A DNA stretch of 64,000 bases from Candidatus Peribacteraceae bacterium. Lineage in GTDB: Bacteria; Patescibacteriota; Gracilibacteria; Peribacterales; Peribacteraceae. The notes beneath the pieces were generated by a model. The model did no database searches and was not told the DNA's origin. It worked only from the letters and a program-made list of their open reading frames with translations. Below are positions 7,541-51,830 of this stretch, one piece after another (position 1 is the first letter of the stretch; the number at the start of each line of letters is the position of its first letter). A program made the translations under genes and the position numbers. The stretch spans positions 13,829 through 77,828 of the forward strand of contig JAQWAC010000001.1 in NCBI GenBank assembly GCA_028707875.1, read 5' to 3'.

Positions 7541-7622
7541 GCTGTATGAGGTATTTTGTATCCTGTATTATGTATTGATTGGGGGATACTTCATACGTCA
7601 TACGAAATACGTCATACTGCAG
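7541..7622. repeat. word-periodic imperfect hairpin (GTATG/GTATT words), element A
   Basis: Left arm CTGTATGAGGTATTTTGTATCCTGTATTATGTAT. The reverse complement of the right arm reads CTGCAGTATGACGTATTTCGTATGACGTATGAAGTAT. Loop TGATTGGGGG. The right arm ends in CATACT, 6 nt before the ATG at 7625. Confidence 0.6.
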
Positions 7623-8567: not shown

Positions 8568-8607
8568 GGAAACCGAAGAAACCAAAGATGCCGAAGAATC
8601 CGAGGAG
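8568..8607. repeat. left arm of the inverted repeat flanking the four-helix-bundle gene (CCGAAGA words)
   Basis: GGAAACCGAAGAAACCAAAGATGCCGAAGAATCCGAGGAG matches the reverse complement of 9081-9130. Confidence 0.65.
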
Positions 8608-8722
8608 TTCCATAAACTTGCAGAACCGATTGTACCGCTTCCAGATTCACAAAGAAGCAAAAATGAAATATTTGGCAATTTGATGATGAAGATATTTCTT
8701 CGGTTCTCAGTACAGTTATTGC

Positions 8723-9079
8723 ATGCATATTCGCCCATACGAGAAGATAATTGCATGGCAGGAAGCTCATCAGCTGACTCTGTATATTTATAAACTGACA
8801 TCTGGATTTCCTTCACACGAACGATTCGGCCTAATTTCTCAAATGCGTCGTTCAAGCGCCAGTGTTCCTATCAATATTGCCGAGGGGAATGCAAAACGTT
8901 CGCATCGTGAGCGGGCATGTTATCTAGAAAGGGCATCTGCCTCACTTGAAGAACTGCACTATGAATGCGTTCTTGCGCGGGACCTTAGTTACCTGTCCTT
9001 TGCCGAGTACGGAATGTGTGATGATCATATTCAGCGTACGAGTTATCTTCTTACAAAACTTCGATCCAGTATTTGTTAA
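8723..9079 (+). CDS. four-helix-bundle protein (23S rRNA intervening-sequence protein / Avd-like family)
   Basis: AWQEAHQLTLYIYKLTSGFPSHERFGLISQMRRSSASVPINIAEGNAKRS and LEELHY are the family hallmarks. Confidence 0.85.
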   Translation: MHIRPYEKIIAWQEAHQLTLYIYKLTSGFPSHERFGLISQMRRSSASVPINIAEGNAKRSHRERACYLERASASLEELHYECVLARDLSYLSFAEYGMCDDHIQRTSYLLTKLRSSIC

Positions 9080-9080
9080 A

Positions 9081-9130
9081 GCCCTTCGGCTTCATTGGCT
9101 TCTTCGGCATCTTCGGCATCTTCGGCTTCC
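9081..9130. repeat. right arm of the inverted repeat flanking the four-helix-bundle gene
   Basis: Its reverse complement, GGAAGCCGAAGATGCCGAAGATGCCGAAGAAGCCAATGAAGCCGAAGGGC, aligns with 8568-8607. It ends at the ychF stop codon. Confidence 0.65.
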
Positions 9131-46770: not shown

Positions 46771-46886
46771 GTGCGGTACGCAGAACCAAGTATGCAGTAC
46801 GCAGGGGCTTTGGAGAAACGGTTGTTAGGGAAAACAGAGGTTTCCGCTCTGTATACTGAATACCGTATACCGTATACTTTCCGTGC
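46771..46886. repeat. word-periodic imperfect hairpin (GTACGCAG / CGTATAC words), element G
   Basis: Left arm GTGCGGTACGCAGAACCAAGTATGCAGTACGCAG. Right arm TGTATACTGAATACCGTATACCGTATACTTTCCGTGC. The arms place CATACT (minus strand) and TATACT (plus strand, 46873-46878) upstream of der and leuS. Confidence 0.5.
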
Positions 46887-50360: not shown

Positions 50361-51830
50361 ATGCCGTATGCTGCTCCGGTGGATCATCCCTTCGACCGTT
50401 ATGCGGCGTTCACGGATCTTGCAGCTTTGAAGGAAGCAAGCATCCGGCCTCTGCGCAAGTGCGTGCGCGTGAACACACTTAAATGTTCCGTGGAAACGTT
50501 CAAAGCATGGGCGAAGGAAAAGGGGTGGAAACTCACGCCCGTTCCATGGAGCAGGGAGGGATTTTTTGTGGAGCGCGAGGATCATGCGACGGCATTGGGG
50601 CGTGACTTGCGGCATTTGCTCGGACACTTTTACATGCAGGAGGCCTCCAGCATGCTGCCGGTTTCATTGCTTGATCCCCAACCCGGTGAGGCGGTGCTCG
50701 ATTTGTGTGCGGCCCCCGGGAGCAAGACGACGCAGATGGCGGATGCCATGCAGGGAAGGGGAGTCATCATTGCGAATGACATGCAGGAGAAACGTCTCCG
50801 CATTCTCTGCGATGCGCTGCAGCGGACGGGAGCGGCGAGCGTGGTTGTCACGCGCAAGGTGGGGCAGTGGTTTGGCAATCACATGACCGAGCGCTTTGAT
50901 CGCGTGCTCTGTGATGCGCCATGTACCGCGCAGGGAACGTCGCGCAAGGATCCGACGGCGCTCACATACTGTTCCACGGCATCCATCATCAGTGCGGCGC
51001 GCCTGCAGCATGAGCTTCTGGAAGCGGCGGTCCATGCGGCCAAAGTCGGAGGGCGCATCGTCTATTCCACCTGCACGCTCACGCCGGAGGAGAACGAAGC
51101 CGTTGCACTCGATATATTGAACAAATATTGTGATCAATTGGAAGTCGTTCAGCCGCCTGAGTTCGCAATGGAAAATGGAAAATGGACAATGGAAAATGCC
51201 GTCGAGGATTCATTGAAAGTGCAGAAATATCTTCAGAAGGAGCATAATGATCAATCATCCATTATCCATTATCCATTTCTTCGCTTGTGGCCCCAGACCT
51301 ACAACACCGAGGGATTCTTCTGTGCTGTCTTCAGGAAAGTGAAACGGACGAAGGAGCCGCAACACACGGATCTGGCGAAGAGAACCTCTGCGCCGCTTCC
51401 CAAAGCGAAGCGTGTAACACTCCAAAAATTGATGAAGGAACAGTTTGGGACGGATTTTCTTCAGGAAGGCGATGCTCTGGTCGAGCGCATGCAGCAGGTG
51501 CTTCTGACGACGGAAATGGCGGACGGCTTCCCGTTGCCTGTCACGGATTACGCCTGCGGGATTCCCTTTTCGAAGATGCTTCCCGACGGACGCTTCCGCG
51601 TGACGAATGAACTTGTTTCCTTGCGCGGCGAAATGGCGAAGAAGCAGACGATGGATCTGAGTGATGATCAGCTTTCCCTGCTCCTTTCCGGCAGAGACCT
51701 CACCTGCAGCGGTTCATTGAAGGGCGATACGATTCTCACCTTCCGCGGCATCTCCTTGGGGTTGGGACTTGCGAAGGAAGGAGTGCTTTTGAATCGATTG
51801 CCCAGATGGGTGGTGAAGCTGGGCAGCTGA
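50361..51830 (+). CDS. NOL1/NOP2/Sun (RsmB/RsmF-like) rRNA cytosine-C5 methyltransferase
   Basis: DLCAAPGSKTTQ (SAM motif), DAPCTAQGT, YSTCTLTPEENE. Start at MPYAAPV (50361). Confidence 0.85.
   Translation: MPYAAPVDHPFDRYAAFTDLAALKEASIRPLRKCVRVNTLKCSVETFKAWAKEKGWKLTPVPWSREGFFVEREDHATALGRDLRHLLGHFYMQEASSMLPVSLLDPQPGEAVLDLCAAPGSKTTQMADAMQGRGVIIANDMQEKRLRILCDALQRTGAASVVVTRKVGQWFGNHMTERFDRVLCDAPCTAQGTSRKDPTALTYCSTASIISAARLQHELLEAAVHAAKVGGRIVYSTCTLTPEENEAVALDILNKYCDQLEVVQPPEFAMENGKWTMENAVEDSLKVQKYLQKEHNDQSSIIHYPFLRLWPQTYNTEGFFCAVFRKVKRTKEPQHTDLAKRTSAPLPKAKRVTLQKLMKEQFGTDFLQEGDALVERMQQVLLTTEMADGFPLPVTDYACGIPFSKMLPDGRFRVTNELVSLRGEMAKKQTMDLSDDQLSLLLSGRDLTCSGSLKGDTILTFRGISLGLGLAKEGVLLNRLPRWVVKLGS
51165..51284. 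repeat. in-frame word-periodic palindromic insertion (AATGGAAA words) inside the methyltransferase CDS
   Basis: Left arm GCAATGGAAAATGGAAAATGGACAATGGAAAATGCC. The right-arm reverse complement reads GAAATGGATAATGGATAATGGATGATTGATC. Encodes AMENGKWTMENA...SSIIHYPFL. Lower GC than the flanks. Confidence 0.65.

Follow-up and report, generated by a model that had tools for sequence, protein, structure and literature searches.

How does a palindromic tract of short repeated words come to lie, in frame, inside a housekeeping gene? The question is raised by an rsmF-like rRNA methyltransferase gene in a stretch of 64,000 nucleotides (nt) from a Candidatus Peribacteraceae bacterium (assembly GCA_028707875.1, contig JAQWAC010000001.1, positions 13,829 to 77,828 of the forward strand), which is called here the window and is numbered from its first letter. 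An initial annotation of this DNA regarded the tract as a hairpin of about 120 nt inserted in one piece, in the manner of the Rickettsia palindromic elements (RPE). The reading that we favour, with moderate confidence, is a different one, namely that of resident heptamer arrays which evolve in place, whose arms are kept complementary and which are tolerated as loop peptides. The features concerned are the following:

50361 to 51830, plus strand: rsmF-like host gene, an intact open reading frame (ORF) of 489 amino acids (aa) encoding a NOL1/NOP2/Sun-family rRNA 5-methylcytosine (m5C) methyltransferase.
51167 to 51198, plus strand: left arm, (AATGGAN)x4.6 in sense, encoding A269-N279 (AMENGKWTMEN); Tandem Repeats Finder (TRF) period 7, score 57.
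51199 to 51256, plus strand: middle of the hairpin, host coding sequence for helix 278-294 (AVEDSLKVQKYLQKE) and a short linker, conserved in orthologues.
51257 to 51277, plus strand: right arm, (NTCCATT)x3, reverse-complementary to AATGGAT units and coding for S300-F306 (SIIHYPF); TRF period 7, score 42.

The two strings from which an imperfect inverted repeat of an 8-nt word had been proposed are both where the initial annotation placed them (AATGGAAAATGGAAAATGGACAATGGAAAATG at 51167-51198 and the reverse complement of GAAATGGATAATGGATAATGGATG at 51256-51279), but the word is of 7 nt, the TRF consensus being (AATGGAA)x4.6 on the left and (ATCCATT)x3.0 on the right, and the one mismatch per word, which is indeed present, falls at the degenerate seventh base of the unit. 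The reading frame is kept, as had been stated, with the whole tract encoding AMENGKWTMENAVEDSLKVQKYLQKEHNDQSSIIHYPFL (residues 269-307 of 489), and the drop in G+C content (GC) is real (0.41-0.43 over the tract against 0.57-0.64 upstream). The best pairing between the arms, obtained by an inverted-repeat search, covers 21 nt at 90% complementarity. When the exact element (51167-51277) was folded, an energy of -28.9 kcal/mol was obtained (z = -2.76), which only 4 of 200 dinucleotide shuffles equalled, but when the tract was folded with its flanks no significant structure was found (z = -1.57, 16/200 shuffles being as good). Folding by itself is therefore weak evidence for a hairpin and its support is modest. 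The non-chance nature of the tract is better shown by the family it belongs to, since the pattern AATGGANAATGGANAATGGA, with at most 1 mismatch, has 120 matches in the genome against 0 for the reversed control. These matches, together with the same arrangement in two independent assemblies (those of the orthologues L002 and L032), refute chance or an assembly artefact, in favour of which stands the weak z-score with flanks. A protein-level repeat selected for its peptide is likewise refuted, since the same DNA word is used in non-coding spacers and in both orientations; we attach practically no probability to any of these three explanations.

Comparison with orthologues bears directly on the proposed insertion. 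In an alignment of 38 orthologues, residues A280, D283, S284, V287 and Q288 are invariant or nearly so, and the core A-[IV]-x-D-S-x-x-V-Q is found in all Peribacteraceae orthologues, including those without repeats, so that the middle segment is a shared part of the protein even where no word is present; for this part of the tract, the outcome is one that the initial annotation had itself named as a refutation. Moreover, YSTCT and EGFF are 86 aa apart in the window RsmF, as compared with 68-96 aa across the family. In the shortest orthologues the linkers measure 11-13 and 7-12 aa and show no periodicity, from which it appears that the arrays add just a few residues on each side of the helix. 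On this comparison, the tract is made up of two short heptamer arrays and not of a single inserted element. It was also found to lie elsewhere in the protein than had been thought: instead of separating the catalytic core from the C-terminal domain, it falls within the PF01189 methyltransferase domain (Pfam match at residues 102-324), between strands 260-262 and 307-309. In the AlphaFold model (mean predicted local distance difference test score, pLDDT, of 83), a loop of low confidence (pLDDT below 50 at residues 270-274) comes after strand 260-262, and then helix 278-294 and a linker, corresponding to the right arm, which leads to strand 307-309; the arms thus fall in loop or linker regions of low confidence, the kind of location that the initial annotation had proposed to look for. 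The site comprises 38 residues in the window RsmF and about 13 in E. coli RsmF, and the arms occupy two flexible linkers or loops flanking an older helix in the beta6-beta7 excursion. The one-piece, in-frame insertion of a mobile RPE-like hairpin element of some 110-120 nt is largely refuted at rsmF by an ancestral, conserved centre and by a segment no longer than in orthologues.

The host protein presents the complete make-up of an RsmF, with an N-terminal domain, an RsmB/F core carrying the two catalytic cysteine motifs and a PUA-like C-terminal domain, PF17125, PF01189 and PF13636 being matched in Pfam. The same alignment shows no variation in the catalytic DAPC and STCT motifs, and the top match in the PDB is E. 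coli YebU/RsmF (2frx, E = 1.7e-65). The names of its homologues point to Peribacteraceae (Peregrinibacteria) as the source. The NCBIfam RsmF equivalog score, 333.8, is below the cut-off of 588, and the RsmF-type rRNA target (16S rRNA m5C1407) is therefore one that we infer for this protein. As regards the orthologues, a genome search for L003 (G023:C5:268133-269581) revealed one in-frame TAG, which may be a sequencing error, a pseudogene or a case of recoding.

The same RsmF loops were found to hold arrays of other words in relatives, as judged from their coding sequences (CDSs). TRF detected 21 period-7 arrays in 25 RsmF orthologue CDSs, and 20 of the 21 are located at three sites, corresponding to residues ~266-280, ~290-306 and ~127-132 of the window RsmF and using at least 9 words. 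Among the words at the left site are AATGGAA, GCGAATG, AAGCGGT, AGCGATT, AGATACA, ACTGGGA and AAGTGGA, and among those at the right site ATCCATT, GATCCGC, ACCCTAC, CTACACG and ACTTACC, the words differing between genera. Left and right words are significantly complementary in L001, L002 and L007 (AAGCGGT/ACCGCTY, P<0.005, in the last) and marginally so in four more orthologues, while they are non-complementary in L017 and L022; L004, L008, L009, L013 and L015 have no arrays. The finding of other words at the same two linkers in other genera is a further point against a one-piece insertion, and argues for resident arrays which evolve in place and not for a recent arrival. A case in point is L031, the nearest relative, whose identity to the window gene outside the segment reaches 87% at the protein level and 84% at the DNA level, and is only 53% inside it. 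At the same two sites its linkers hold (AAGTGGA)3.4 and (ACTTACC)3.6, i.e. AAGTGGN/NCCACTT, so that with respect to AATGGAA/ATCCATT a compensatory change from A:T to G:C, involving two pairs, extends across the units of both arms. Conversely, L032 and L002, which are more distant than L031, keep AATGGAA and are more similar to the window gene within the segment than outside it; conserved residues have identical codons in 22/26 cases in the segment against 164/302 outside for L002 (p = 0.003), and in 20/24 against 206/355 for L032 (p = 0.017). Both the compensatory-change and the codon-identity tests rest on few sequences.

The third site, at residues ~127-132 and just after motif I (TTQxAA...), is empty in the window RsmF and carries arrays in L031, L021, L032, L017 and L002. 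These include (GGGATTC)x4 in L032 and (AGGACTT)x4 in L017, near residue ~130, and, in L031 (L031:1283-2830, residue ~130), a full GC-rich hairpin, CCCTCTC CCCCTAC CCCTCCC ... GGGGAGG GGGGAAG GGGTGGG, which is read as SPYPSPDSGEGGRGGG.

According to the reading of resident arrays, these would be long-term occupants of the two RsmF linkers. Their units would turn over in place through replication slippage or short-tract conversion, and either hairpin-templated (quasi-palindrome) correction or selection acting on the nucleic-acid hairpin would keep the arms complementary. In-place turnover with coupled arms would account for the other words at orthologous sites and for the change of a whole word in both arms. 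In the case of RsmF, the arrays probably amount to extensions of loops, neutral or mildly tolerated. The coupling of the arms also raises the possibility of a hairpin, of RNA or DNA, selected for a role in rsmF expression, either as an RNase III-type processing or stability site or as a translational pause before the last strands. Intervening sequences (IVS) of 23S rRNA are RNase III substrates, and arms like these bracket PF05635 genes in the same way as in such IVS. A selected hairpin would also fit the whole-word change of L031, which preserves complementarity by going from A:U to G:C at two pairs, as well as the third complementary pair, that of L007, the excess of identical codons and the z-score of the exact element. 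Nevertheless, the seventh base never covaries, L017 and L022 have non-complementary words, five orthologues do without arrays, nine solitary arrays within genes are unable to form a hairpin, and the significance of the fold is lost with flanks, all of which makes this explanation unlikely.

The tract belongs to a population of heptamer arrays pervading this genome of 1.32 Mb, in which tandem arrays were searched with TRF. Period 7 is over-represented, with 184 arrays as compared with 62 for period 8 and 48 for period 10, and accounts for 28 inverted pairs, with at most 2 at any other period. AATGGAN is the dominant word, with 85 arrays over 56 loci, 29 of which are hairpin pairs; among the 184 period-7 arrays, about 85 are thus of this type, while ACGCCCT provides 18 and AAAGTGG 7. 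Four units are favoured (50 arrays), with 3 units in 24, 5 in 10 and 6 in 1. Outside genes the arrays are mostly convergent pairs able to form hairpins, and AATGGA precedes TCCATT in 29/29 convergent pairs, no divergent pair being found. The 29 pairs share little beyond the unit: their loops, of 4-89 nt, are unrelated in sequence, their arms comprise 3-6 units, and no target-site duplications (TSD) were found in their 12-nt flanks. The seventh base is degenerate (T>A>C), its composition being equal in the two arms once both are written as AATGGAN, and no covariation between arms was found at this position (34/100 identical against 38 expected). The unrelated loops, the lack of TSD and the lack of covariation imply that the AATGGAN loci are independent assemblies of one unit and not copies of one element. 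The initial annotation had seen in the rsmF tract the same architecture as in the intergenic hairpins of the window, and this was confirmed, the rsmF word being in fact the dominant one of a genome-wide family. Two hairpins of like architecture and other words were located in the window by TRF:

7543 to 7617, unstranded: intergenic hairpin, words TGTATNN / ATACGTC.
46776 to 46877, unstranded: hairpin upstream of leuS, words GTACGCA / GTATACC.

Many AATGGAN loops hold an inner palindrome, CTTCG-N(5-8)-CGAAG (e.g. C13:1364-1444, C34:10109-10183, C52:12544-12619 and C54:853-935), and the left flanks of the hairpins often end in GGAACG or GCG, so that AATGGAN hairpins may have an inner conserved module.

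A search for further in-frame copies, as the initial annotation had advised, gave 17 AATGGAN arrays within ten genes, RsmF included, with Pfam domains spanning or flanking the arrays. The genes are those for ValRS (2 arrays), CarA (2), Mn/Fe superoxide dismutase (SOD), a MurD-type ligase, MiaA, Dus, a GT2 glycosyltransferase, a FemAB-like protein, an O-antigen-ligase-like membrane protein (2) and RsmF. The proportion of arrays in Pfam-verified CDSs is thus 17/85. The sense arm reads N-G-K-W-K-M-E and the antisense arm I-H-Y-P-L-S-I. All solitary in-gene arrays (9/9) are in sense and give the hydrophilic peptide N-G-K-W-K/I-M-E/D, and the antisense ones (4/4) are partner arms of full hairpins, such hairpins being found inside the GT2, FemAB-like and O-antigen-ligase-like genes. 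In addition, no frame of (AATGGAT)n is free of TAA, while (AATGGAA)n and (ATCCATT)n can be read through, and T occupies the seventh base in 27% of units in sense arrays against 50% elsewhere (p = 0.002). This bias indicates that the in-gene arrays are translated and selected against TAA-creating units, and that inside genes arrays survive only where they can be read as loop peptides. The left arm in RsmF has no unit with T at the seventh base, which is consistent with TAA avoidance and explains the A-versus-T mismatch in each word.

Other array-bearing genes suggest where such arrays settle. The SOD array overlies an ancestral N-G-K turn and adds 6 aa with respect to PDB homologues, and at a second site in CarA the ancestral E-W-K-D-G (AATGGAAAGATGG; four other genera) has become E-W-K-M-D-N-G-K-W-I-M in this genome. 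Judging from these two cases, arrays of the dominant word tend to sit on pre-existing word-like sequence, and on the reading of resident arrays dominant words such as AATGGAN would have spread between loci by seeding at sequence of this kind and not by transposition. The inter-domain linker of CarA is comparable to the RsmF linkers, holding period-7 arrays of six different words in six genera. As for the FemAB-like gene (C2:9931-10986), its full AATGGAN hairpin has an 89-nt loop, and a further stretch of the gene, encoding SPTPLPRIGGGDGGGG, resembles a GC-rich hairpin of words from a second family, again in frame. Phase variation, considered as a contingency mechanism, was rejected, since the arrays are imperfect and lie within essential single-copy genes.

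These data allow the insertion of a mobile element to be weighed at the scale of the genome. In its favour are the sharing of the word with 55 other loci, the in-frame copies in ten unrelated genes, the full hairpins in three of them (GT2, FemAB-like and O-antigen-ligase-like) and the GC dip over the tract. Nevertheless, loops are unrelated, arms variable, no consensus of an element can be drawn and no TSD is present; furthermore, the genome has no reverse transcriptase, and its sole Y1 transposase-like gene is not flanked by arrays. With the conserved centre already described, this leaves the explanation quite improbable. The idea that such elements are mobile and tolerated within proteins can then be divided: tolerance in frame is borne out in many proteins, whereas transposition is unsupported, with only a 7-nt unit shared and no TSD. 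The comparison with RPE holds to the same extent. RPE measure ~150 bp and form defined families, in each of which both the sequence and the peptide it encodes are conserved (PMC10969869). The likeness consists in palindromic repeats found in frame in unrelated metabolic or housekeeping genes (ten of them here), in surface regions and apparently compatible with structure. In this genome, however, the copies have nothing but the 7-nt unit in common: they lack the consensus of an element, their loops bear no relation to one another, their arms differ in length and many arms stand alone, and in RsmF it is ancestral sequence that lies between the arms, with no clean module added.

The reading of resident arrays has its own difficulties. 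In-place drift alone leaves unexplained the presence of one word at 56 loci, and the excess of identical codons in the segment, which speaks for it, is based on ~25 codons. The clustering of sites in orthologues could also be explained by repeated independent insertion filtered to permissive loops. Among 41 relatives the AATGGAN word was found only in Peribacteraceae (0-17 matches per genome), and it was taken for a lineage-specific word, an idea that was overturned by a scan of one genome per species, which turned up more than 120 stretches with arrays of at least 4 AATGGAN units, in Cyanobacteria, Bacteroidota, Chlorobi, Clostridia, Planctomycetota, Acidobacteriota and others. Thirteen inverted pairs were seen in 80 of these loci, and in each of them AATGGA comes before TCCATT, so that the polarity summed over this genome and other phyla is 42:0. 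Resident arrays leave unexplained why Chlorobi, Clostridia, Bacteroidota, Planctomycetota and further phyla use this word with this polarity, and the 42:0 polarity suggests a directional process, which slippage and template switching do not predict. Very long arms were seen in a Chlorobaculum metagenome-assembled genome (MAG; L107:2521-2812) and in a Peptococcaceae MAG (L113:7490-7780), with convergent arrays of AATGGAT / AATGGAC, 9-14 units per arm and loops of 130-140 nt, the loop of L113 containing its own tandem repeat of ~45 nt.

Since polarity and recurrence across phyla remain unaccounted for by the preferred reading, the alternative of a writing process stays alive. A trans-acting, directional writer would lay heptamer words as convergent pairs on either side of a point or of a segment, may overwrite resident arrays and might be linked to cassettes of Avd-like PF05635 genes. 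The absolute polarity (29:0 in the genome and 13:0 in other phyla) speaks for it, as do the arms, which look as if drawn independently, on opposite strands, from a single distribution of units, and the joint switch of word in the two arms of L031. Moreover, inverted word arrays bracket every PF05635 (23S rRNA-IVS protein, Avd-like) gene in this genome (4/4), the word, of 7 or 9 nt, differing from one gene to the next, and in Odoribacter sp. (Bacteroidota; L109:3325-3771) such a gene lies between (AATGGAG/AATTGAG) and (TCCATTC) arrays, with word and polarity as in Peribacteraceae. PF05635 is multi-copy in 30/41 related genomes. The loci in this genome, the first of them in the window, are:

8569 to 9129, unstranded: PF05635 gene at 8723-9079 with inverted arrays of a 9-nt word at 8569-8603 and 9084-9129 (TRF, Pfam).
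C36:19537-19995, C58:9045-9500 and C29:7481-7933: the other three PF05635 loci, with inverted word arrays around each.

Against a writer, no reverse transcriptase or other candidate enzyme was found in the genome, and a break-and-fill model does not allow for the 58 nt of ancestral coding sequence that persist between the arms. Genome G016 has RsmF arrays and 17 pattern matches without any PF05635 gene, a counterexample which shows that PF05635 copy number does not track AATGGAN abundance. Finally, polarity could equally reflect selection. A writer of this kind is considered unlikely. As a broader proposal, the RsmF tract could be the footprint of an unrecognised DNA-writing activity, directional, word-specific and common to several phyla, able to rewrite the two arms of a resident site together, possibly tied to PF05635 and distinct from slippage and transposition; we put this forward tentatively, as a rather unlikely but worthwhile possibility.

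Two further observations concern the PF05635 genes. The copy at C36 has an in-frame TAG, and in four genera a PF05635 gene adjoins carA (C58:9133-9444 in this genome, G014 C13:9976-10275, G002 C4:29850-30164 and G031 C8:30674-30991). The carA-adjacent cassette therefore looks, from its repeated neighbourhood, like an old, vertically inherited resident and not like a recent arrival.

Among the systems already described, the closest in kind is that of the heptanucleotide repeats of cyanobacteria and Xanthomonas, while the in-frame tolerance of the arrays of this genome is similar to that of RPE. The heptanucleotide repeats in question are the GGGAATC / GGGGA(C/T)T heptamers of Xanthomonas and Nostoc, belonging with the short tandemly repeated repetitive (STRR) sequences of filamentous cyanobacteria, and in Xanthomonas 70-75 convergent pairs of heptamer arrays are capable of forming stem-loops (Rehm et al. 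2015, PMC4692102). In both cases tandem 7-nt units are dispersed, apparently for the most part in non-coding DNA, with a dominant word, about 4 units favoured and convergent pairs on opposite strands which can form stem-loops. However, AATGGAN has at most GG, without any G-tract or quadruplex, as compared with the Xanthomonas/Nostoc class. Furthermore, the host genome here is of the Candidate Phyla Radiation (CPR), a fifth of the arrays lie in frame in housekeeping genes, orthologous sites keep their arrays while the word changes, and like arrays bracket PF05635 genes. The ORF-bearing 23S rRNA IVS, or PF05635 cassettes, also have inverted arms around a cargo, although the 'cargo' in RsmF is 58 nt of its own conserved coding sequence and the whole structure is translated. 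Repetitive extragenic palindromes and bacterial interspersed mosaic elements (REP/BIME), REP doublets with their tyrosine transposases (REPIN-RAYT) and MITEs (transposable elements of the miniature inverted-repeat type) share the dispersal of short, hairpin-forming repeats in small intergenic spaces. Unlike REP/REPIN-RAYT, the arrays have no palindrome consensus and the Y1-like gene is not flanked by repeats, and unlike MITEs they lack the signature of terminal repeats plus TSD, their internal sequences being unrelated. No paper was found in the literature describing such repeats in Peregrinibacteria/Peribacteria.

The interest of these arrays lies in that a genome of 1.32 Mb under strong reduction retains dozens of them, even in ValRS, CarA, MurD, SOD and RsmF. 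The use of the same loops across the family, with turnover of the word in both arms together, is hard to explain by microsatellite slippage or by known mobile elements, and the orientation without exception and the same layout around 23S-IVS/Avd-like genes are equally so. If the generating process were identified, it would explain the heptamers of cyanobacteria and Xanthomonas as well as one route of surface-loop growth in essential proteins. From a practical point of view, gene calling, alignment and assembly can all be led astray by these arrays in CPR genomes.

With respect to the Y1 gene, the only PF01797 (Y1) match in the genome (C12:4406-4681, 29.2 bits) falls in the following ORF, around which no word arrays were found within ~2.7 kb and which could be a RAYT-like gene:

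C12:4154-4720, minus strand: IS200/IS605-type Y1 transposase-like ORF of 189 aa with HxH and Y motifs, located between pyrF and a ComM/YifB-like gene.

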